Positions 1,445 through 60,217 of a stretch of DNA of 64,000 nt are shown here, piece after piece. Under the pieces are notes generated by a model that worked only from the letters and a program-made list of their open reading frames with translations, searched no databases and was not told where the DNA came from. A program made the position numbers and the translations under genes. The stretch's first letter is position 1; every line of letters begins with the position of its first letter. The stretch is from the IMG/VR virus record IMGVR_UViG_3300020048_000058; one strand, 5' to 3'. This DNA is from a virus.

Positions 1445-4400
1445 CTAATTACGGGAGAGATTAACCATTTGCTGAATAACATTTTCTAATCTTGGCTCCA
1501 CTTGTTTCTTAATTGATTCCCCCACTTTTTGATCGCCGTTTACGGTAATTGGAATATTTATTGTTGGAGAGATTGTCGTCTGCCCTCTCTCCGTGGCTTG
1601 TTGCAACGCCCGTAAGAAGTCTGGGGGAATACTAGGGGACAAAACGGGAGACAGGGCAGAGGGAAGTTTGAGAGGATCGGTTAGTCGAGGACTGGGAGGC
1701 AAAGCGGAGGGAAGTTTGAGAACTCCGTTCTCCTTTCTCACCTCCATAAATTTATCAGACAGAACTGGAGTTTTAATAACAGGAGCCTCAATAACAGGAG
1801 CCTCAATAACAGGTGGGTCAATAACCGGAGTTTTAATAACAGGAGTTTCAATAACCGGAGTTTCAATAACCGGAGTTTCAATAACAGGTGGGTCAATAAC
1901 CGGAGTTTTAATAACAAGAGTTTCAATAACCGGAGTTTTAATAACAGGAGTTTCAATAACCGGAGTTTCAATAACAGGCGGGTCAATAACAGGCGGGTCA
2001 ATAACAGGAGTTTCAATAATAGGTGGGTTAATAACCGGTGGGTTAATAACAGGAGTTTCAATAATAGGTGGGTTAATAATAGGTGGGTTAATAACCGGAG
2101 TTTCAATAACAGGCGGGTCAATAATAGGTGGGTTAATAACAGGAGTTTCAATAATAGGTGGGTTAATAACAGGAGTTTCAAGAGGATCGGTTAATTTAGG
2201 GCTAAATGCCACAATAGGGGACGGGATGGGAGACAATGCAGAGGGAAGTTTGAGAGGATCTGTTAATTGAGGAGAAGGTGCTGATCCCCCTCCAAGTCCG
2301 CCAGTGAGTTTGTAGATTTCAGAAGATGCGCTACCTGTTGCACCAGAGAACTCCCCATCCCCTCTTATGCTCCGCATTGTTCCCTCTGCGGACATCCCTC
2401 CTGGCAATCTTCTGCTCCCTTTTAATCCACTTTCTCTGAGGGCTTGCTCTCCCGTCGCTGCGGCTCGACCCGTTAGATCGCTTACGCTGCCCACTTCAAA
2501 CCTATCAAGCACACTGGCTTTAATATCTGCAAAACGCTGCCGTTTTAATGATCTGTTACTGGTGTTGTTGGCCAAGTCCACCTGTGCCGAGCGAATGGCC
2601 CCTTGACTACGGAATTCCAACGCTTCTCTCTGGAGTTTGAAAACTTTTGACTGGTTAATGTCTTGTCTCCGTAATAAATCCAAGTTTTGCTCTTGGTAGC
2701 CAACGTTCTCTCCTGCTATATCTGCCGCTGTTTGCAGGTCGTCTAACTCTTCTGGAGTTGTTCTAGGATCTTTCTTGGCTGATTTAAGAGCATTATCAGC
2801 TTTTCTTTTTTCAACTTTCGCATCATTCAACGCCCTTTTAGCAGCTAGTTTATCCCGTTCTATTTCGATACCTTTCATTAATTGTTGGGATATCAGGCTT
2901 TGTTTATCAAATTCAGCTTGCTGGATTGCTGATTTTAATTTAATAGCCGAGATTAATTCAGCGAGTTGTTTTTTCTTCCGTTCAGAGCGTTCTCCTTGGA
3001 CTAAAGCATCTAATTCCCCTGAGTAAAAGCTACTAGCCGCGTCAAACACCCCTTTTTGTGCGTCCTGTAATTCCGAACGCATTTGAAGGGCTTTATTGAG
3101 AATATCGAATTTCCGACTCTGATTATCTAGTTCGTTATTCTGGCGTTTAATAGTGTTCTCATAGGCCTGTGCTTCCTTGTTTAATCCTGCTTCGTATTTC
3201 CTTACGTTTGCATCAATCAACTGCCCCTGAGCCTCAACCAACTGCAACTGGAGCTTGATTTTCTCGCCAGCATCCGTCTCTAAACTAATTTTGGTTTGTA
3301 ATGTTCTAATGGCTTGCTGTGCTATTGTTAGATCATATTCTTCCCCAAAAATCTTCCCTTGGTTTAGCAGGGTTTTTAAGGCAATTATTTCCTTAGTATT
3401 CTTAATCTCGGTTTCGGCAATCTCTAATGCTGCCCAGGCTTCTCGTTCTTCCCCGGTAGCTTTCTCTAGGGACAGTCTTAATTTGGCTTGTTTATTGACA
3501 TCTTTTTCTCGGCTAAGTTGAAATTGCAACTCCTGAACTTTATCGGTAGCACTTGAAGCCCCTTCTAGCTCCCTGAGTGCGTTACCACTATTAATCTGCT
3601 TTTCTATGCTTAATAATTGAGCATCATTCTCTTTGGCGATGTTCCCTAAAACGGTTTGAGTGTGGGCATCCCAGGCTTCCTTCTCGGCTTTCAACATCCC
3701 CAAGGATTGTTGGAGTTGTTCTTGTCTTAGCTTTCTGATTTCGGTTTGTCTGTTAGCCTCTAGTCGTGGGTCTGAGAGTGCGGGTTGAGCTTTTGTTGCC
3801 TCTAGTTTTTTAAACGTGTTATTGTATTCAGACTCAAGAGTTTTGAGGTTGTTTTTAACATTTTCCTCGTCAACTAGGTTTTGATCACCTCCAAATTCAT
3901 TAAACGACTTCTGAACTTCATTTTGTCTAATTAATTCAGCTTCTTTAACTAAATCAACAGTTTTTTTAAGTTGTTTTTCTAGTGCAGAAAGTTCTTGGTC
4001 GTAGCCATCCTTGATTGTTTTTTGACGCTGAACTTGGAGTTTTCCGATTTCGGCGTTGACAGCTTCTCGACCTTCTTTGTCAGTATCCGCTAACTTCTTT
4101 AATTTGTTCTGTTGTTGCCTGATTTGTTCATCTAACCCCTTGATTTGTAATTGTGATTTTTGGCTATTGTAGTTTTCCTCTGTGGATAGTCCTTGAGCAA
4201 GATATCCCTCGATGATTGACTGTTGCTCCTGAAAGTTTTTAACCAGTTCCTCGTTTTTTTTAGATCGTTCCTCTGCAACGACTTTAGTGATATCCGATTC
4301 TATTTTCTTAATTTCTTCCCCTGCTTTTCGGACTGCTTCAAGATTTCCAAAGGATTGTTGTTCAGACTGAATCCGTTGTTGTGCTGCCTTGCGTTCCTCT

Positions 4401-14897: not shown

Positions 14898-17615
14898 CTA
14901 TACTTCCTCAGCTTCAACAATAATCCGTCCGTTTTCTTTTTTGACACTTTTAACTCGATGGCGAGTGTCTTTCAGCACCATAACTTCGTCTTCTTCTTTG
15001 ATATTGCTCAAATTCCTAATAGACGCACCTGACTTATTAATGGCTTTAATGACGACGGGATACCTTGGTTCATAAATATCGAAATCGTCGAAATCGTCCG
15101 AAAAATACTCTGCTGTTTCAAGGCTAGATGACCAAGAGGCGTGAGCACCTTGATTATCTAGCACTCCATCCTTGTCGCCGTTAGCCCAGTTTAAAGCCTC
15201 CTCTTTGGTTGCAAAATGAATCCCTCGGTAAACTTCGCCTTTGTATGGGGTTGAGTTCCTGACATAATTAGAGATCCGATTTGCATCTTCGTTTTCTTCC
15301 CCTGCTTTTTGATCGACTCGGATGTCACTGGAATCCCTTGTCCATTTATAGATGGCTGTAGTGGTGGCTGCTGCCTCCTTCTTAGAAATATTTACCCCTG
15401 CTTTTTCCAGTGCTTCACGATACTCATCGGGGGTTGAGGGCATGGATTCATGGTCGCCCTTCCCTACTAAATTAAGGTTTTTAGGTTTTTCTTCGGGTTG
15501 TTTAGGTGTTTTTTCTTGCTCAATACCATCAGAAGATTCAACCTCTTCTACCTGTGCATATATAACGCCACCTCTTTCCGTAAAACTTTTAATCTTGTGT
15601 CTAGTGTCTTTTAGGACAACAACCTCGTCTTGATCTTTAAAACGGGGATTGGCTAAATTACGAATAGACGCTCCCGACTTGTTCACAGCTTCAATAATAA
15701 CAGGTTGTGACCCCTTCCCGTACTGTCCATGACTGTGTGCGGAGAACCTTTCTGCGATTTCCTTTTTGGAACTCCATGATGCGTGGGCGTTTTGATTATC
15801 TAAAATCCCATCTTTATCACCTTTCAACCACTTCAGTGCTTCTTCTCTGGAGGATAAGTTTATCCCTCTATATATTTCGCCTTTGTATGGGGTTGAGTTT
15901 TTAACAAAACTTGCAATATCTTCTCCTTGCTGATTAAATTTTCCCGCTTTTTGATCGTTTCTAACTAGGTGGCTTGTATCAGTCCAGCCTGAAATAGACT
16001 GGACAACCCTTTGAGCTTCTTCTGGTGTTATTTCTCCCCCGGCTTTTGCTATTGCCTTCTGATATTCTTGGGCATTTTTTGGAACTCCCTTATGAGTCCC
16101 GTTACCCACTAATTTTGTGGATTGCTGTTTCTTGGCTTTAGGCGCTACTGTTTGCGGTTCTGGTTTTAATTCAGGAGTTGAAACAGGAGGGTTTTCTGTT
16201 TTGGCTTTAGATGTCGCTTCGGTAGCCTTTTTCTCGGATTCTTTTTGGGTTTTAGTTATTTCTGGTGACGGTTCAGGCGTTTTCTTTTCCTTGCCAGGAG
16301 AAACTTCTTCTGTCTCAACGATCAAAACACCATCTTCGTACACAACCTTTTTAACCCGATGGCGAGTGTCTTTGGCAACCACTACCTCATCTTCCGCGCC
16401 AATGTTGCTTAGGTTTTTGATGGAGGCACCCGACTTATTATTTGTTTTGATAATGACAGGTTGCGATGTAAAGTCGTTTACCGAATTGTTACCAGCAAAT
16501 CCTCTCGCTTTATCCCAATTAGAAGTCCAAGAAGCATGGGCATTCTGATTATCTAATATCCCATCCTTATCTCCCTTAGCCCAACTCAAAGCCTCATCTG
16601 TTGATCCAAAGGAGATGCCTCGGTAGATTTCACCCTTGAATGGCGTTGAACTCTTGACGTAATCAGTGATCCGGTCGGCAACGAGGCTGTATTTCCCTGC
16701 TTTTTGAGATTCTCTAATATAAGAGGCATCCTCTGTCCACTCTTTAACGGCTCCGGTAATCTTTATGGCATCGTCATAAGAGATGGGATTACCCGATGCT
16801 TTCATTGCTTCAAAGTACCCGTATGCGTCGCCAGGAACGGACTCATGATCCCCCTTTCCTACTAAATTAAGAGGCTTGGGTTCGTTTTCAGGTTCTTTAA
16901 GGGTTTCTGTTTGATCTTCACTCTTTACAGCTATTTTAGCAGCTTTCTTCCCTTCTTCAAAGTCAGATTCTTTCCCTTTTTTGCTAGGGGGAATTTCCTT
17001 TATTGTTTCTGGGATTTTATCTATTTCTGGTGGTTTTTCTACCTCTTTCTTGGTTTTTGTAGTTGATTTAGGATTGGATTTCTTGGCTTCTTTAGCGTAA
17101 TCAATACCAGCAGCTTTCAATTTCTCTAAACGATCCTTTGACTGAGCGTCATCGGGGTTTGATTTACAATTATTTTTAATATTTATACAGGCTTTCCCAC
17201 AATTATACGCTGTTGGCTTAACGCATTGAGGCTTTTTTTTGCCACCTACTCCTGCGTCAACACGGAAGCCATACCCTGCTGAAAATGCTTCCCATTCTTG
17301 GACATCTTCCTCTGATTCTAAGCTGTCCATTTTGCCAGGTTTATAAGGCTTATAGGCTACGGACTCCCCATCTAAAGTAAAGGAAAACACCCGTGGACGT
17401 GCCGCATCTTTAAATACTCCGGTAATATTCCCATTCTCGGCAACATCAAATTTAAGCACAACAACTGGGGCGTTGTAAACAAAATCCATTGACAAGGTTT
17501 GGGCAATAAGTAACCTCATTTGAGCTTCGGTTGGCGCAGTACCCTTGCCATCATCCCCAACTGATACTTCATCTTCGTCAACCCGATATAAAGAACTTGG
17601 TTTTGTTTTTAACAT
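14898..17615 (-). CDS. effector-family paralog: N-terminal module + 4-Cys motif + three tandem ADP-ribosyltransferase (R-S-E type) domains
   Basis: There are three ~200-aa repeats. Each has YRGI (Arg), AHASW(T/S)S (S-x-S) and (E/Q)DEV(V/M)V (Q/E-x-E), and each ends in VE(T/A)EEV. Before the repeats come the N-terminal module TEAQMRLLIAQTLSMDFVYNAPVVVLKFD and QCVKPTAYNCGKACINIKNNC. Confidence 0.8.
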   Translation of the reverse strand: MLKTKPSSLYRVDEDEVSVGDDGKGTAPTEAQMRLLIAQTLSMDFVYNAPVVVLKFDVAENGNITGVFKDAARPRVFSFTLDGESVAYKPYKPGKMDSLESEEDVQEWEAFSAGYGFRVDAGVGGKKKPQCVKPTAYNCGKACINIKNNCKSNPDDAQSKDRLEKLKAAGIDYAKEAKKSNPKSTTKTKKEVEKPPEIDKIPETIKEIPPSKKGKESDFEEGKKAAKIAVKSEDQTETLKEPENEPKPLNLVGKGDHESVPGDAYGYFEAMKASGNPISYDDAIKITGAVKEWTEDASYIRESQKAGKYSLVADRITDYVKSSTPFKGEIYRGISFGSTDEALSWAKGDKDGILDNQNAHASWTSNWDKARGFAGNNSVNDFTSQPVIIKTNNKSGASIKNLSNIGAEDEVVVAKDTRHRVKKVVYEDGVLIVETEEVSPGKEKKTPEPSPEITKTQKESEKKATEATSKAKTENPPVSTPELKPEPQTVAPKAKKQQSTKLVGNGTHKGVPKNAQEYQKAIAKAGGEITPEEAQRVVQSISGWTDTSHLVRNDQKAGKFNQQGEDIASFVKNSTPYKGEIYRGINLSSREEALKWLKGDKDGILDNQNAHASWSSKKEIAERFSAHSHGQYGKGSQPVIIEAVNKSGASIRNLANPRFKDQDEVVVLKDTRHKIKSFTERGGVIYAQVEEVESSDGIEQEKTPKQPEEKPKNLNLVGKGDHESMPSTPDEYREALEKAGVNISKKEAAATTTAIYKWTRDSSDIRVDQKAGEENEDANRISNYVRNSTPYKGEVYRGIHFATKEEALNWANGDKDGVLDNQGAHASWSSSLETAEYFSDDFDDFDIYEPRYPVVIKAINKSGASIRNLSNIKEEDEVMVLKDTRHRVKSVKKENGRIIVEAEEV

Positions 17616-17636
17616 GATTTTACTTTTTATAAATAG

Positions 17637-17732
17637 AAACCTTGTGAGCTAATCACAAATAAAAACCTTGTGAGTTAATCACAAATAAAAACCTTGTGAG
17701 TTAATCACAAGTAAAAACCTTGTGAGCTAATC
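17637..17732 (-). repeat. 26-bp tandem repeat x about 3.6, each unit carrying a TGTGA-N5-TCACA inverted repeat
   Basis: CCTTGTGAG(C/T)TAATCACAA(A/G)TAAAAA starts at 17640, 17666, 17692 and 17718. The last copy is the 3' end of ORF 17705..18124 (…SSQGFYL stop). The array lies directly upstream of the start of the triple-ART gene at 17615. Confidence 0.9.
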
Positions 17733-42749: not shown

Positions 42750-42943
42750 ATCAAATCGCATCTCAGACTTTAAGTAGATTAAATGGTCGTAACAAATCAG
42801 TGTTAATTGGCAAGGCTTACCCCCTAGGGAATAGTGGATCTGTATTCTCTGGGATGGGTAAAAGTTTTGTAGCCAAAGGGGTGGTTACTGGTAAGGCGAT
42901 CGCCTTTAAGCACAATGGTAAATGGCAAGTTGTACAAGGTTAA
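42737..42943 (+). CDS. small hypothetical protein (68 aa)
   Basis: ORF ending …KWQVVQG stop. Its last 12 nt (GTACAAGGTTAA) seed the downstream 16-bp tandem repeat. Confidence 0.45.
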   Translation: MATVNQIASQTLSRLNGRNKSVLIGKAYPLGNSGSVFSGMGKSFVAKGVVTGKAIAFKHNGKWQVVQG

Positions 42944-43103
42944 ATGAGTACAAGGTTAAATGAGTACAAGGTTAAATGAGTACAAGGTTGAATGAGTACA
43001 AGGTTGAATGAGTACAAGGTTAAATGAGTACAAGGTTAAATGAGTACAAGGTTAAATGAGTACAAGGTTGAATGAGTACAAGGTTGAATGAGTACAAGGT
43101 TAA
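42944..43103 (+). repeat. 16-bp tandem repeat x10 (ATGAGTACAAGGTT[A/G]A) immediately upstream of the fibre-like gene
   Basis: Ten exact units start at 42944 and every 16 bp thereafter. The only variable base gives the pattern A A G G A A A G G A, so there is an 80-bp higher-order period. Each unit has AAGG, 5 nt, then ATG. The real start at 43107 follows the last unit. Confidence 0.95.
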
Positions 43104-43106
43104 AAT

Positions 43107-45395: not shown

Positions 45396-47090
45396 ATGGG
45401 AATGTTTTCGGATATTGATTATTCTTTGATTGTTTTGCAATTAGAGAAGGCAATGGCTAATGGTGTGGCTACCTTGGATTCAAATACTAAGGTTCCTAAA
45501 GCTCAGATTAGTTTAACCGCTTCTGATGTTGGTGCGATCGCGTCTACTGGCAACGAAGTTTTAACAAGTTTAAACGCCGCGTCTGGCACAATTTCATCTG
45601 GGCTTTTACCGTCTTATGTTGATGATGTCCTGAGTTATACAAACCTTGCCGGGTTCCCAGGTACTGGCGAAGCTGGAAAGATTTACGTTGCAGAAGATTC
45701 CAATAAAGTTTACCGATGGTCGGGTTCTGTTTATGTTGAGATATCGAGTTCTGCTACTGCGGGAGAGGCTTTAAAACTAACCACGCCACGGACAATTGAA
45801 GCGACGGGAGATGCAAGTTATTCGGCATCTTTTGATGGTTCAACCAATGTTACAAGTGCGATAACACTGGCAACGGTCAATAATAATACTGGTTCTTTCG
45901 GTAGCGCTAGTTCAATTCCTGCTATTACTGTCAATGCTAAGGGTCAAGTAACTGCGGTTTCAACTAACAGTATCGGGAATGAATTAATTGCATTACAATC
46001 TTTAGCTGACACCCCAGGATTTTTAAAGAAAACTGGTAACGGGACTTATTCTATTGATGTTAATTCCTATCTTTCATTGGCAGGTGGGACTATCACGGGG
46101 GACTTGATTTCAACTAGCGCAACGGCATCAACATCAACAACTACAGGGGCTTTAAGGGTCGCTAGTTTAGGGGTTACGGGTGCTATTTTTGCTGGTACTG
46201 TTAGTGCCAATTCTTACAATTTGATTCCTATTTGGAGAGGAGAGGGAAACATAGGCACAAATACAGTAACAGGAGTTAGTGCGCTTTTGTCCAATACAAC
46301 AGGAGGGAATTTATCTGCCTTTGGAGTTAATTCGCTTCTGTCCAATACCACAGGATGGAATTTATCTGCCTTTGGAGTTAATTCGCTTCTGTCCAATACC
46401 ACAGGATGGAATTTATCTGCCTTTGGAGCTTTTTCGCTTCAGTCCAATACAACAGGAGGGAATTTATCTGCTTTTGGAGTTAGTGCCGGACGCTTTATTT
46501 CCGATGGCGTTACGGGGCTAACAATATCAAATAACTCTTGTTTCTTCGGCATGAACACCAAAGGAACCCAGAACGCAACCAATGAGAACGTATTTGGCTA
46601 CAACGCCACCGGAAACGGCTCAAACACCGTAACAATTGGTGATTCAAATATTACCAATACCTACCTAAGAGGTGTGATATCAACTAATTCCACAACACCT
46701 TCAACCTCTCCCACCACGGGAGCTAGTGTAATTCCTGGGGGTCAAGGGGTTCAGGGAAATCAATATGTTGGGGGTTTTAGTTCTTTGGGTGGGGACGCAA
46801 GTCATCCAGGGATTAAGATTAAGGTGCTAACGGGAACTACGGCAGCAACACAAGGGGGGGGTGTAGGAATAGCTCATGGAATAGCTGATATAAACAAAAT
46901 AATTTCAGTTAATCTTTGGGTGAATACAGGTCAGGGGTTGGGGTTATTTGCACCCCCTAATTATACAAATGGAGCCATCCAATATAATTTTATGCTTTAT
47001 GGGGGTCATATTTCTGTAGAAAATCACCCATCAAACAGTTACAACCTTTTGTCAAAACCAGTCACAATAACAATAATTTACACGGCATAA
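45396..47090 (+). CDS. tail fibre protein candidate with 17-aa tandem repeats
   Basis: 564 aa. The N-terminus (…ANGVATLDSNTKVPKAQI…) and the G-x-rich repeats (LLSNTTGGNLSAFGVNS x4) are typical of phage fibre shafts. Confidence 0.6.
   Translation: MGMFSDIDYSLIVLQLEKAMANGVATLDSNTKVPKAQISLTASDVGAIASTGNEVLTSLNAASGTISSGLLPSYVDDVLSYTNLAGFPGTGEAGKIYVAEDSNKVYRWSGSVYVEISSSATAGEALKLTTPRTIEATGDASYSASFDGSTNVTSAITLATVNNNTGSFGSASSIPAITVNAKGQVTAVSTNSIGNELIALQSLADTPGFLKKTGNGTYSIDVNSYLSLAGGTITGDLISTSATASTSTTTGALRVASLGVTGAIFAGTVSANSYNLIPIWRGEGNIGTNTVTGVSALLSNTTGGNLSAFGVNSLLSNTTGWNLSAFGVNSLLSNTTGWNLSAFGAFSLQSNTTGGNLSAFGVSAGRFISDGVTGLTISNNSCFFGMNTKGTQNATNENVFGYNATGNGSNTVTIGDSNITNTYLRGVISTNSTTPSTSPTTGASVIPGGQGVQGNQYVGGFSSLGGDASHPGIKIKVLTGTTAATQGGGVGIAHGIADINKIISVNLWVNTGQGLGLFAPPNYTNGAIQYNFMLYGGHISVENHPSNSYNLLSKPVTITIIYTA
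46275..46478 (+). repeat. 51-bp coding tandem repeat x4 inside the fibre gene
   Basis: The units are VSALLSNTTGGNLSAFG, VNSLLSNTTGWNLSAFG, VNSLLSNTTGWNLSAFG and AFSLQSNTTGGNLSAFG. Units 2 and 3 are identical at the DNA level. Confidence 0.9.
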
Positions 47091-56779: not shown

Positions 56780-57499
56780 TTAGGGAGCAAGCCGAGCTTT
56801 CCCTAATCTATTTTTTTCATACCAAGCTGAAATCTCAGGAACCCAATCCTGAGTATGGGCCCACATCATTTCAGAGAGTTTTTGAATCTCTAACTGGGCA
56901 TCTTTTTTAAATCTTAAATCGAGAAAATGTAACAGTGAACGCAGGTTACAAGACATAACAAAATGCTGTCTGAAATCGAACGGGATTAAACCTCTAGCGT
57001 GTTCTTCTGACATTCCATTTAAGATATTATTTTTATACATTTCACAAGCATCTAAACAATATCTTAAATGGAAATCTCTTTCAAAATGAGAATATTTATA
57101 TTTTTTCCCTTGGCGGTCAACATATTCACCAACGGGTCTTAGGTAAAATACATCCTCAATATCACGTTTACCATCAACAACATCAATTATTCTTTGACCT
57201 GAATAACGCATCGACTCAACGCTAAAACTCATTATCCTGTGTCGCGTTGCTTGCTGCATTACACTGTGAGGGAAATAGCCAACATTAAATACTATGTAAG
57301 CTGTTTCGGCACAACTCCAATGCCCTCTATCACCTGCTAATAATCTTTTAACTGCTATCTCGCCACACTCTTTTTCTGGGGGGATTTTATCAATGCCTTC
57401 AAACACATAATTCTCGCTATAACATTGATGCAATGCCAGATAAATCATCTGTTGGGGATTAGCTGTTTTTGATAAAACCTCAACCTTGAATTTGTCCAT
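56780..57499 (-). CDS. thyX: flavin-dependent thymidylate synthase ThyX
   Basis: The ThyX signature is present as QQATRHRIMSFSVESMRYS (RHR…S…S.RY). The start is taken at MDKFKVEVL (ATG 57499), which is preceded by GAGGAGG. Confidence 0.9.
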   Translation of the reverse strand: MDKFKVEVLSKTANPQQMIYLALHQCYSENYVFEGIDKIPPEKECGEIAVKRLLAGDRGHWSCAETAYIVFNVGYFPHSVMQQATRHRIMSFSVESMRYSGQRIIDVVDGKRDIEDVFYLRPVGEYVDRQGKKYKYSHFERDFHLRYCLDACEMYKNNILNGMSEEHARGLIPFDFRQHFVMSCNLRSLLHFLDLRFKKDAQLEIQKLSEMMWAHTQDWVPEISAWYEKNRLGKARLAP

Positions 57500-57546
57500 T
57501 AGCCTCCTCTTTTGTGCATCTTTAGTCAAGAAACAATGCAATCGTT

Positions 57547-58314
57547 ATTTCAATCCATAAAATAGGCAATCGTCTATTGCGGGATGGATACTTAAATCAT
57601 CATCAACTAAACAGGGATGTTTCAATCCATAAAATAGGCAATCGTCTATTGCGGGTTTAAACGGGGAACCCAATTGTTTTTAGTCAGGATGTTTCAATCC
57701 ATAAAATAGGCAATCGTCTATTGCGGGTTTTGCTAAGTCGGAATGGTAATTAGCATCAAAATCGTTTCAATCCATAAAATAGGCAATCGTCTATTGCGGG
57801 TTCCCTTTACTTTTAAACTGATAATAGCTATCAGGGTTTCAATCCATAAAATAGGCAATCGTCTATTGCGGGAAAAAGCATACGATACAGCTATAAAAGA
57901 AGGTTATCTATTAGTTTCAATCCATAAAATAGGCAATCGTCTATTGCGGGAAAACCCCTGCATAGGCTTTTCTACCATAGAACGGTTTCAATCCATAAAA
58001 TAGGCAATCGTCTATTGCGAGATCAAAGCCATTAAGAATAGGATAAAAAACATCCAAGTTTCAATCCATAAAATAGGCAATCGTCTATTGCGGGTTTGGG
58101 TCTATCTGTTGGGTTACGACCGGGGGATTAGTGTTTCAATCCATAAAATAGGCAATCGTCTATTGCGGGTTCCGTTTACTCTGGGAACCATTCAAGGCAT
58201 CATTGTTTCAATCCATAAAATAGGCAATCGTCTATTGCGGGTTTATAACCATGTTCTGGGGATGATGCCAGAAGAAGGTTTCAATCCATAAAATAGGCAA
58301 TCGTCTATTGCGGG
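57547..58314 (-). CRISPR. CRISPR array, 11 repeats of 37 bp, 10 spacers of 34-41 bp
   Basis: The repeat on the plus strand is GTTTCAATCCATAAAATAGGCAATCGTCTATTGCGGG. Repeats start at 57547, 57619, 57691, 57764, 57836, 57914, 57985, 58058, 58133, 58205 and 58278. Repeat 1 has A for G at position 1, and repeat 7 ends GCGAG. The spacers are unique. I assign the minus strand for three reasons: the degenerate repeat is distal to the nuclease gene, the nuclease gene is on the minus strand, and in that orientation the repeat ends GGATTGAAAC next to the spacer. Confidence 0.95.
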
Positions 58315-58333: not shown

Positions 58334-60007
58334 TCAGGCGTTTCTATCGAAATCACCTAAGCTCATTCGATTTATTATAGCATGAGTTTTGGCGGTTTCG
58401 GCAACTAAAAAATCGTGAACCCCGTTTTTAAACAAATCATCTGGAATTGTTATGGTGTCTGACTTTTTGGTTTTTTTCTTGGTTGCCTTTTTAGAAGAGC
58501 TAGGGGTTGCCGAATTTTTATTAATCAGGAATTTATACCAGAAATTATCGGACAATTCCACACCTTGATTGATTGCCATTTGAGCTAAACCTTTTAACTT
58601 AATGTTCTGTCCTGAGTTGACATCACGAGCAACGGTATAACCACAATTAGAGCATTTGTGAGTGCGTTGAGATAGCTTTTTCTTCTCTTGATGTCCACAC
58701 TTCGCACAACATAAAGTAGTTCCCCAATTATCAACCCGAATCACTAATTTTCCGTGTTCCTTTGCTTTGGTTTCTAATAAATCAATAGCTTGACCAATAG
58801 CTACGTCACTCCCTGTTCTGTTACTTCCTCGTTTGCGTTTTTGATTATTTTTATCGTAGATAACTGTACCATTTTCGGCAACCACTGGATTTCCTTCTGT
58901 GTCTAATTTTGCCTTGGCTTTAGCTTTTCGGTAGACGTTGGCGGGTTTGTAATCCTCAACAAAAATCACGTCAAACCAATTGATTAAATTGGTAGAATGC
59001 CAGTGATTGAATGATCGGCGGTGACGGGCGATTTTCTCATGAAGTTTAGCAATTTTATTATTGAGTTTCTCCCAATTCTTAGTTTTCCCCTCGTTCATTC
59101 GATACTTGCGAGATAATTGTTGCTGCATTTTCCTTAGACGTTTTAGCGATCGCTTTAAAGGTTGTGCAGCCTCAATAGTATGACCATTATCCAATGCCAT
59201 AACAAACTGATGTCCGGGGTCAATTCCACAACATAACCCTGTCTTCTTGGCTTGCTTGACAGGGACGGACGCAGTTAATTGTACATACCACCCCGACGCT
59301 TTTTTGCAAATTTTCATCGGGTTAAAATCGCAACCATACCACCGTTTATCAAATCCAATTACCTCGATATAACCCAATTTTGGAATATTGATCTTACTGT
59401 CCTTAACACCTAGATCCTTAGCGTTGTAATGGATTAAAGTCATTACCTTATCTTTAGCTGTTTTGAAACGTGGACGGCTGTGGCGACCCGCTAGAAATCC
59501 CTCCCAAGCCTTTGATAGTTCATGCGCTACACCTTGAATGAATTTTGCCGGGCAATCGGTGAAATTAACTTTTCGCTCCTCACCTCTAACTAAATAAGTC
59601 ACAATCCGATCCTTGTGGTGCTGATGTCCAAATACCTTTAGGAACCCGTATAGTACCGACTTTTTAGAATCCAGTGAGTCAATAATAGGGCTATTTTCAT
59701 CAATGGCGACGGGATGGATTAACCCCCTTTTCTTCTCGACTCGCTCAATCCCCATCTTCCAATCTGGGATCTCAATTCGTACCCATTGCTTGAGCTTGCG
59801 GTCGTATCGTTGCAGGGGAGTTGCAGGGACGTTAGACTTTGACAGTTTATCGTAAGGGTTCCACTCGTTAAATTCCTCTATCAGTCCTAATGAGCGATTC
59901 CAAACCCACTTACAAACTAGCATCCAATCTTCTAGGGTTCGCTCTTGTTCTGAAGATAGAATGAGTTTAAACTCCTTTGTTCGCACATTTTCGCTAAAAT
60001 TAGACAT
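58334..60007 (-). CDS. compact TnpB-like / Cas12-type RuvC nuclease (557 aa) adjacent to the CRISPR array
   Basis: The N-terminus KEFKLILSSEQERTLEDWMLVCKWVWNRSL follows the TnpB/OrfB pattern. RuvC-I is CCGIDPGHQF, RuvC-II is IFVEDYKP and RuvC-III is VARDVNSGQNIK. The zinc finger is CCAKCGH…HKCSNCGY. A ~95-aa Lys-rich C-terminal extension follows RuvC-III. Confidence 0.8.
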   Translation of the reverse strand: MSNFSENVRTKEFKLILSSEQERTLEDWMLVCKWVWNRSLGLIEEFNEWNPYDKLSKSNVPATPLQRYDRKLKQWVRIEIPDWKMGIERVEKKRGLIHPVAIDENSPIIDSLDSKKSVLYGFLKVFGHQHHKDRIVTYLVRGEERKVNFTDCPAKFIQGVAHELSKAWEGFLAGRHSRPRFKTAKDKVMTLIHYNAKDLGVKDSKINIPKLGYIEVIGFDKRWYGCDFNPMKICKKASGWYVQLTASVPVKQAKKTGLCCGIDPGHQFVMALDNGHTIEAAQPLKRSLKRLRKMQQQLSRKYRMNEGKTKNWEKLNNKIAKLHEKIARHRRSFNHWHSTNLINWFDVIFVEDYKPANVYRKAKAKAKLDTEGNPVVAENGTVIYDKNNQKRKRGSNRTGSDVAIGQAIDLLETKAKEHGKLVIRVDNWGTTLCCAKCGHQEKKKLSQRTHKCSNCGYTVARDVNSGQNIKLKGLAQMAINQGVELSDNFWYKFLINKNSATPSSSKKATKKKTKKSDTITIPDDLFKNGVHDFLVAETAKTHAIINRMSLGDFDRNA

Positions 60008-60008
60008 A

Positions 60009-60028
60009 CCTATTTAAGAAATTGAAAC
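60009..60028 (-). ncRNA. anti-repeat-like element (candidate 3' end of a tracrRNA, or part of the nuclease mRNA leader)
   Basis: The minus strand reads GTTTCAATTTCTTAAATAGG, which matches the first 20 nt of the plus-orientation repeat at 16 of 20 positions. As RNA it would pair with the spacer-proximal CCUAUUUUAUGGAUUGAAAC of a minus-strand crRNA at 18 of 20 positions (16 Watson-Crick, 2 G-U). It ends 1 nt before the nuclease ATG. Confidence 0.5.
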
Positions 60029-60195
60029 GTATGTATTGACATTTCCATTATATACAACTATAGTGGAATCACCGACGTTTAGATCGGCAAGCCAAAAGCT
60101 GCCCTTGGAGCCGAAAGGATTAACGATTAGGCGATGAAGAGGGAATATTCTCTAGCCAGATATGGTTAGCAATTTTAAAAATAGGTAATCAACTT

Positions 60196-60217
60196 AAAGG
60201 GGCTCCGGCCCCTTTTT
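60196..60217. terminator. bidirectional terminator hairpin separating the methyltransferase operon from the nuclease locus
   Basis: AAAGGGGC (60196-60203) pairs with GCCCCTTT (60208-60215) around the loop TCCG. T-runs or A-runs lie on both sides. Confidence 0.65.

Follow-up and report, generated by a model that had tools for sequence, protein, structure and literature searches.

A predicted divergent tracrRNA gene and a start codon-proximal anti-repeat at a TnpB-derived, C2c8-like CRISPR locus of a cyanophage

The 64,000-nucleotide (nt) stretch of viral DNA analyzed here (IMG/VR record IMGVR_UViG_3300020048_000058; referred to below as the window) carries on its minus strand a gene for a 557-amino-acid (aa) nuclease derived from TnpB, followed by a clustered regularly interspaced short palindromic repeat (CRISPR) array. 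A gap of ~190 nt separates the nuclease ATG from a terminator farther upstream and was recognizably conserved where the proteins were only 31 to 45% identical. We infer that the interval from 60009 to 60217 would comprise two back-to-back transcription units, and the gap most likely encodes, divergently from the nuclease and on the plus strand, a predicted trans-activating CRISPR RNA (tracrRNA). The order of elements in the gap, read on the nuclease strand, was a bidirectional terminator, a pseudo-repeat, a hairpin, a conserved core, TATAAT followed by GTCAA, an inverted repeat copy termed element A, and the ATG. The features of the locus, with open reading frame abbreviated ORF and 5' untranslated region abbreviated 5'UTR, were as follows.

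57548-58314, minus strand: CRISPR array, 11 repeats of 37 nt and 10 spacers of 34 to 41 nt
58334-60007, minus strand: nuclease ORF, 557 aa, TnpB-derived type V effector, C2c8/V-U2-like
60009-60028, minus strand: element A, inverted degenerate copy of the 3' half of the repeat, in the presumed nuclease 5'UTR
60036-60064, plus strand: predicted tracrRNA promoter TTGACA-17 nt-TATAGT, sigma-70 match at 11 of 12 positions
60052 to 60047, minus strand: predicted nuclease-promoter -10 box TATAAT, inside the spacer of the divergent tracrRNA promoter, read from the sequences
60065-60193, plus strand: predicted tracrRNA scaffold of ~125 nt, covariance-model match of 134 bits, predicted start near 60071
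60072-75/60084-87, plus strand: predicted scaffold helix P1
60077-60080, plus strand: putative anti-repeat 1, P1-loop bases GUUU, complementary to the AAAC that ends the repeat
60088-92/60098-101, plus strand: predicted scaffold helix P2
60102-06/60139-43, plus strand: predicted scaffold helix P3a
60110-12/60130-32, plus strand: predicted scaffold helix P3b
60152-58/60163-69, plus strand: predicted scaffold helix P5
60170-60190, plus strand: putative anti-repeat 2 (element B), CAATTTTAAAAATAGGTAATC, predicted to pair with repeat positions 13-33/34, beginning directly past P5
60196-60217, plus strand: intrinsic terminator AAAGGGGCTCCGGCCCCTTTTT, bidirectional, with the better T-run on the plus strand

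On the nuclease strand, the repeat reads CCCGCAATAGACGATTGCCTATTTTATGGATTGAAAC and is followed by the spacer, with the array beginning 19 nt past the nuclease stop codon. This arrangement, with the guide 3' of the repeat and the array in the same orientation as the gene, was associated with homologues of 28% to 99% identity, and an array lay 3' of the gene in this orientation at 11 of the 12 homologue loci whose sequence extended far enough past the gene. The 557-aa protein matched the Pfam domains OrfB_IS605 and Cas12f1-like TNB, and the closest solved structure was ISDra2 TnpB (E = 2e-20). The top NCBIfam model was V_cas_c2c8 (NF038192), with a score of 302.2 bits against a curated cut-off of 350, and the protein is labeled C2c8-like here rather than assigned to V-U2 (C2c8); the guided_TnpB model was passed, and homologues at 26 to 36% identity bear the C2c8 name. 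The RuvC triad (D263 in GIDPG, E351 in FVEDY, and D462 in ARDVN) and the zinc-ribbon cysteines (CxxC pairs at 434 and 452) were intact, and a RuvC D-E-D triad, a TNB zinc ribbon, and association with an array were thus all present, as in a type V effector. The Pfam matches, the ISDra2 TnpB match, and the RuvC triad bear out the assignment to small type V/TnpB-like effectors made in a first-pass annotation of this DNA. The neighboring genes matched thyX, C5 DNA methylase, and DnaB in Pfam, the flank was similar to Planktothrix phage PaV-LD, and about 20 near-identical copies of the locus were found on IMG/VR viral contigs. Given its domains, its relation to ISDra2 TnpB, its neighboring genes, the PaV-LD-like flank, and the copies on viral contigs, the locus is a phage-borne, TnpB-derived mini type V system in a PaV-LD-like cyanophage, with cleavage predicted. 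A Pfam scan of the neighboring ORFs showed neither transposon ends nor tnpA. The earlier suggestion of a transposon-derived origin holds only broadly, for the protein, which is TnpB derived, and not for the inverted copies that flank the gene, which are copies of the CRISPR repeat and not insertion sequence (IS) ends.

Base changes in the gap followed the pattern of a structured RNA. Compensatory changes in the gap hairpin included CCAGTC/GACTGG, CCATCC/GGATGG, TGAGC/GCTCA, and others. Across five helices in nine close variants, 99.5% of cells were paired when read on the plus strand, 10 of 23 pairs were changed on both sides, and there were 14 G-U cells and 1 A-C cell. Thirteen distinct sequences had 98% of cells paired and compensatory changes in 18 of the 23 pairs, and 26 distinct members contained 468 Watson-Crick, 57 G-U, and 5 A-C cells. 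A G-U pair appears as A-C on the opposite strand, and this asymmetry therefore points to a functional RNA on the strand of the model, which is the plus strand in the window. Covariance models built from curated alignments recovered the RNA in about 25 lineages. The all-lineage MAFFT alignment was too poor outside the core helix, and curated close-clade and covariance-model alignments were used instead. Alignments fitted by a covariance model lean toward the model structure, whereas neither the asymmetry of G-U and A-C cells nor the promoter or the covariation of the loop, both described below, is subject to this bias; the E values of the home-made covariance models are rough. No Rfam family matched the plus-strand RNA, even at E values up to 1. 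Elsewhere in the window, the broad tracrRNA model (R2) gave a weak match on the minus strand at 15333-15484 (14 bits, E = 0.93), probably by chance.

The predicted tracrRNA promoter was the best sigma-70 match in 3.3 kb, with GTCAA of the nuclease strand reading as TTGACA on the plus strand. It was conserved at 10 to 11 of 12 positions in the same place in most related loci of this upstream-antisense layout, where intrinsic terminators followed, while scaffold copies in the downstream sense layout were without a promoter. The hairpin at 60196-60217 reported earlier was present. At one locus (L036, ~2410-2500, P0004), a palindromic promoter module, TTGACATTTCCATTATAT, was inverted and tandemly duplicated relative to the window, and the strong -35 box consequently points at the nuclease gene, not at the tracrRNA.

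The first-pass annotation had placed a candidate tracrRNA on the minus strand, as a ~190-nt RNA bounded by the terminator and 60009, whose 3' anti-repeat would be element A. The complementarity of element A to the repeat at 18 of 20 positions fits such an RNA, as do a lower fold z-score (-2.97 versus -2.07), driven by a long-range stem between element A and the pseudo-repeat, and one G-U pair in L015-17 that favors the minus strand. These points are set against the 57-to-5 ratio of G-U to A-C for the plus strand and a better alifold energy on that strand (RNAalifold, -27.0 versus -22.5 kcal/mol). On the minus strand, moreover, the P1 loop would read AAAC, unable to pair with the end of the repeat, and only the terminator of the neighboring gene, and no promoter, lay upstream; a promoter scan found none from which the interval could be transcribed into a minus-strand RNA. 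Relatives carry the scaffold in sense, with its anti-repeat past P5, and the equivalent in the window is element B, not element A. With the conserved plus-strand promoter, the terminators, and the sense omega-like scaffold of relatives all in disagreement with it, a minus-strand tracrRNA has scarcely any chance of being correct. Element A lies upstream of the tracrRNA -35 box and therefore outside the RNA, and the anti-repeats are instead assigned to 60170-60190 and the loop at 60077-60080. What stands of the earlier proposal is the interval, a length of ~150 nt, and a main anti-repeat at the 3' end, while its strand and its anti-repeat do not.

Two segments of the predicted plus-strand tracrRNA were complementary to the repeat. 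Element B paired with the repeat of its own locus in all 10 lineages tested (-18 to -25 kcal/mol) and in a constant register, starting right past P5 and ending at repeat position 33-34. The 4 repeat bases that it leaves free were complementary to the first 4 bases of the P1 loop, and the loop and the repeat end covaried in 11/11 lineages with an array beside the gene (GUUU/AAAC, CUUU/AAAG, and CUUC or CUUU/GAAG), as would be expected of a pseudoknot. In the ISDra2 TnpB omega RNA, the pseudoknot is formed by bases -5 to -3, which adjoin the guide, and bases -103 to -105 near the 5' end, and a guide-adjacent stem then follows; the Cas12f equivalents of the pseudoknot and the stem are R:AR-1 and R:AR-2 (PMC10097598). 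Since its two contacts have the register of an omega RNA, the window RNA shows the features expected of a split omega RNA, i.e., of a tracrRNA, and it combines an anti-repeat that covaries with the repeat and a conserved structured scaffold on the predicted transcribed strand.

Alternatively, the conserved plus-strand RNA might be a regulatory antisense or small RNA, or a guide-less leftover of an omega RNA, with a nuclease that works with CRISPR RNA (crRNA) alone. The link between RNA and nuclease rests on sequence, and some TnpB-derived effectors are reported to be tracrRNA free, e.g., Cas12n (PMC12721324). However, covariation with the repeat was seen at two separate places in the RNA, in the same register as the pseudoknot and stem of the omega RNA, the scaffold is kept by the gene in about 25 lineages, and the protein is small and most similar to ISDra2 TnpB, which requires a ~116-nt scaffold. 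This alternative has a very small chance of being right, and we infer that the tracrRNA would be required for cleavage.

About 25 lineages retained the scaffold by the gene, in a position that differed among relatives. In L034, it lay in sense within the 3' end of the nuclease ORF, followed by the anti-repeat and then the array. In 11 further loci, it lay in sense just past the end of the protein match and was without a promoter; in L044, it was upstream in sense; and in the window clade and seven other lineages, it was upstream, inverted, and furnished with its own promoter and terminator. The window scaffold is thus upstream, antisense, and guide-less, while L034-type relatives keep the overlapping position, and the predicted window RNA is a homologue, not a member, of the IS200/IS605 TnpB omega RNA. 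As part of an overall explanation that we consider probable as a whole, the tracrRNA would descend from the omega-RNA scaffold of TnpB through relocation and inversion. One protein family thus has the scaffold in the ORF 3' end, downstream, upstream in sense, or upstream in antisense with its own promoter, and these positions form a natural series for a tracrRNA gene gaining independence. In L034 (5380-5660), the ORF reads through the scaffold and the anti-repeat to a TAG stop inside the first CRISPR repeat, and the C-terminal ~70 residues are therefore encoded by the guide-RNA scaffold.

The ISDra2 TnpB omega RNA (also termed reRNA) resembles the predicted window RNA in having a scaffold of >100 nt, in which a guide-adjacent pseudoknot with a loop near the 5' end is followed by a stem, and L034-type relatives likewise overlap the ORF 3' end in sense. 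Unlike it, the window RNA is divided into crRNA and tracrRNA, with guides from an 11-repeat array and a scaffold that lies outside the ORF, upstream and inverted, with its own predicted promoter and terminator. TranC effectors are TnpB-to-Cas12 intermediates with a CRISPR array and a tracrRNA from a split omega RNA (bioRxiv 10.64898/2026.03.27.714800; PDB names). They and Cas12f share with the window system a compact TnpB-like nuclease, an array, and an omega-derived tracrRNA, and Cas12f likewise has two repeat:anti-repeat contacts; however, the similarity of LaTranC and Cas12f to the window protein was weak (E = 1e-4 to 1e-11) and confined to the C-terminal part. The tracrRNA of TranC and Cas12f is sought between effector and array or in the 3' end of the gene, whereas that of the window is upstream and divergent. 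A TranC-style anti-repeat within the 3'-terminal part of the window ORF or the gene-array gap was considered and rejected, as an ungapped complementarity scan and both covariance models came back empty there.

The V-U2 (C2c8) systems, including that of cyanophage vB_AphaS-CL131, match the window in their cyanobacterial or cyanophage setting and in consisting of an effector and an array with no other cas genes; the CL131 homologue was 30% identical to the window protein. The genome paper of CL131, the sole isolated phage with a system of this kind, reported a tracrRNA to be absent (PMC6293099). At ~3990-4010 of the CL131 locus (L049, MG209611.1), a sense anti-repeat, CCAACTACATTACATCCTCCG, was found between the annotated "transposase" and the array, preceded by a hairpin containing GAGATGAA. 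CL131 differs in this respect from the window clade, in which the layout is upstream-antisense. Phage-borne V-U2 systems and the split guide RNAs of TranC are already known. Apparently new are the two-contact tracrRNA model for a C2c8-like clade, with TranC compared through PDB names and the bioRxiv text only, as well as the move of the tracrRNA to a divergent, promoter-bearing unit and the additional anti-repeat in the leader of the nuclease. No published guide-RNA architecture was found for V-U2/C2c8-like effectors, a gap that they share with few other named type V groups. The model provides a concrete guide design for the 557-aa phage nuclease, with a ~125-nt tracrRNA and a crRNA made of the last 22 to 25 repeat nt plus the spacer, and its two repeat contacts are open to compensatory mutation.

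Element A reads GTTTCAATTTCTTAAATAGG on the minus strand (60028 to 60009) and is followed by a single T and the ATG at 60007. The earlier counts were reproduced: compared with the plus-strand start of the repeat, GTTTCAATCCATAAAATAGG, it was identical at 16 of 20 positions, with one exact 8-mer and one exact 7-mer, and as RNA it paired with the last, spacer-proximal 20 nt of the repeat at 18 of 20 positions (16 Watson-Crick and 2 G-U). The duplex energy (RNAduplex, -17.5 to -18.9 kcal/mol) was far outside that of shuffled partners (about -7 ± 2.4 kcal/mol). A repeat search of the window found the inverted match against every repeat of the array. With the array set aside, no other sequence on the two strands of the 64-kb window reached 16/20 against the half-repeat, and the chance level was 0.19 such matches per window (dinucleotide shuffles). 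Nearly every lineage retained a TAnAAT box on the nuclease strand, adjacent to GTCAA. The window copy (TATAAT, 60047-60052) had no good -35 box beside it; it would start the nuclease mRNA near 60040, and element A would then make up nearly the whole of a ~30-nt 5'UTR.

Across lineages, a significant anti-repeat was present at most 45 nt from the start codon in 8/11 lineages with the upstream-antisense layout and in 0/7 with other layouts. Its distance from the ATG was 0 to 19 nt, and that from the -35 box varied from 7 to 35 nt. The gap holds a second repeat-derived element at its far end (60165-60190), overlooked in the first-pass annotation, which is the pseudo-repeat; in the window it reads GATTACCTATTTTTAAAATTGCTAAC (60190 to 60165), and it is a direct copy, on the nuclease strand, of the repeat of its own locus. 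Element A starts with G/C-UUUC, matching the extreme 3' end of the repeat, including its C/G switch; the pseudo-repeat is without these bases, and element A therefore tracks the repeat itself. Pairing of element A with the pseudo-repeat in cis was judged unlikely, as its first 5 to 7 bases match the repeat 3' end that the pseudo-repeat lacks. Two further candidates were set aside: a hairpin sequestering the start codon around element A, seen by eye in L014 and L018, was unconserved, and descent of element A from an IS left end was unsupported, with loci of omega-like layout being without it. Repeat copies were also gained near the start codon elsewhere. In L037/L038 (~2355-2500, P0005 locus), a near full-length inverted copy was gained at the nuclease start, the second beside element A, and in L037 it replaces the first codons, giving a new N terminus (MALNQ...); in L039/L055, a direct full repeat copy and a partial one precede the ATG.

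A role for element A in pairing with tracrRNA-free repeats, and thereby tuning nuclease synthesis to guide-RNA status, is plausible but falls somewhat short of an even chance. The first-pass annotation had offered an autoregulatory leader as its second reading; with element A in the presumed 5'UTR, no more than about 20 nt from the start codon, and following the repeat of each lineage, such a leader is still a candidate. More tentatively, and rather unlikely in this specific form, element A might be a guide-RNA-sensing operator on the nuclease mRNA, such that translation or stability would depend on tracrRNA occupancy of the repeats, with this continuous anti-repeat and the tracrRNA as rivals for one set of 22 bases in each repeat. 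If true, such an operator would form a feedback loop made of RNA only, a type undescribed for class 2 systems, and a functional leader anti-repeat would be a new way to tune effector level to guide-RNA supply. The Cas9 tracr-L and CreR RNAs are self-regulating guide-RNA mimics, which act by guiding the effector to the DNA of cas promoters. Element A resembles them as a degenerate repeat-derived sequence at a cas promoter or 5'UTR that could couple cas expression to guide-RNA status, and it differs in being without a guide part and in its proposed action by RNA-RNA pairing on the mRNA leader.

Element A might instead be functionless, a recombination or gene-conversion scar from the upstream move of the tracrRNA cassette that conversion has kept array-like. 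A-like elements were found only in loci with the upstream-antisense cassette, elements A and B form inverted repeats flanking the promoter and scaffold, and other repeat copies have landed in the same place (inverted in L037, direct in L039). Element A was also lost in 3/11 lineages, and in L014 it did not follow a change of the repeat. A neutral 20-mer by the start codon, however, should not persist down to 36% protein identity in intergenic DNA that is otherwise unalignable. The distance of element A from the ATG is also confined to 0 to 19 nt, against 7 to 35 nt for the -35 box, and the first base of element A covaries with the last base of the repeat. A scar is unlikely on these grounds, but nearly as likely as the repeat-pairing role.

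The symmetrical layout of repeat-like copy, promoter, scaffold, and anti-repeat could also suggest that the segment from A to B is an invertible cassette, in which a flipped promoter would drive the scaffold, element A as anti-repeat, the nuclease, and the array as one operon, with A and B as alternate anti-repeats of an expression switch. Inversion would explain why repeat complementarity is kept at both ends; orientation differs between lineages (e.g., sense in L044), and the short palindromic promoter module of L036 is inverted and duplicated. Nevertheless, the flipped junction was found on 0 viral contigs compared with 14 for the observed junction, about 30 close contigs were all in one orientation, the arms were only ~75% alike and 20 nt long, and no recombinase gene lay beside the locus among the Pfam-scanned neighboring ORFs. 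Both the flipped operon and the switch between anti-repeats are therefore very improbable.

The explanation that best accommodates these observations, and that is likely to be correct, is a divergent plus-strand tracrRNA, a nuclease-array transcript, and element A in the leader of the latter. The strong promoter at 60036-64 would drive a tracrRNA of ~150 nt on the plus strand, from about 60071 to 60217. Element B of this RNA (60170-90) would form a duplex of ~21 bp with repeat positions 13-34, and the GUUU of the P1 loop (60077-80) would pair with the four bases that end the repeat, adjacent to the guide. The two contacts may rebuild the guide-pseudoknot-stem architecture recognized by TnpB and Cas12f nucleases, and the 557-aa nuclease with crRNA and tracrRNA would cut spacer-matching DNA, presumably that of competing phages or other mobile elements. 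A weak, -10-only promoter that overlaps the tracrRNA promoter would start the minus-strand nuclease-array transcript. The 19 nt from the nuclease stop to the first repeat yielded neither a terminator nor a promoter, and the array is therefore probably on the nuclease transcript. Element A, as one continuous anti-repeat over the repeat bases contacted by element B and the P1 loop, may pair with unoccupied repeats, either on its own nuclease-array transcript or on free pre-crRNA; this pairing could block access to the start codon or generate a site for RNase III, tying nuclease synthesis to guide-RNA status.

Several observations weigh against this explanation. The choice of the plus strand, the transcription starts, and the processing of the RNA are all deduced from sequence. 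A close variant (L015-17) has a plus-strand A-C, equal to a G-U on the minus strand, and a possible fifth P1 pair in the window, seen by eye, likewise favors the minus strand. The terminator at 60196-60217 was overlooked by the automatic scan, which counts part of the T-run as stem. The array repeat of L014 has diverged mid-repeat with elements A and B unchanged, and the covariation is therefore not strict. Element A was weak or absent in L046, L023, and L048 and confined to the upstream-antisense layout, which fits a by-product of rearrangement as well as a function. No spacer target, and hence no transposon-associated motif (TAM), was found in the window, in ~110 fetched loci, or in 50,697 phage records.

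The array sits in an operon-like series of minus-strand genes. The thyX ORF (56780-57541, TTG start) begins ~7 nt past the last, degenerate repeat (window 57541-57583), with no terminator 3' of the array, and array transcripts may therefore continue into thyX. Two repeat variants differing mid-repeat, GACGATTGCCTATTTTATGG and GGTGATTATCTGGTTTAAGG, occurred among phages that were 94 to 99% identical and were apparently mixed within one array (L013, 4967-6116, compared with the window and L014 arrays), while the tracrRNA anti-repeat was unchanged. About 20 close contigs contained 113 distinct spacers, with no cas1 or cas2 in the locus. Among the homologous nucleases, four at 41 to 45% identity (P0007, P0008, P0009, and P0011) had FVGD, FLGE, or FLGD in place of the VED/FED glutamate at the RuvC-II site, and their catalytic site may be shifted or altered. 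In L041/L042 (1-406), a second, longer OrfB_IS605/TNB protein (664 aa) was encoded divergently on the contig of the C2c8-like gene, ~2 kb upstream of it. The window also contained several strong tandem repeats unrelated to the CRISPR locus, at 42932-43104 (16 nt × 10.8, 97% identity), 1763-2181 (45 nt × 8.9), 46272-46482 (51 nt × 4.1), and 17631-17732 (26 nt × 3.9).

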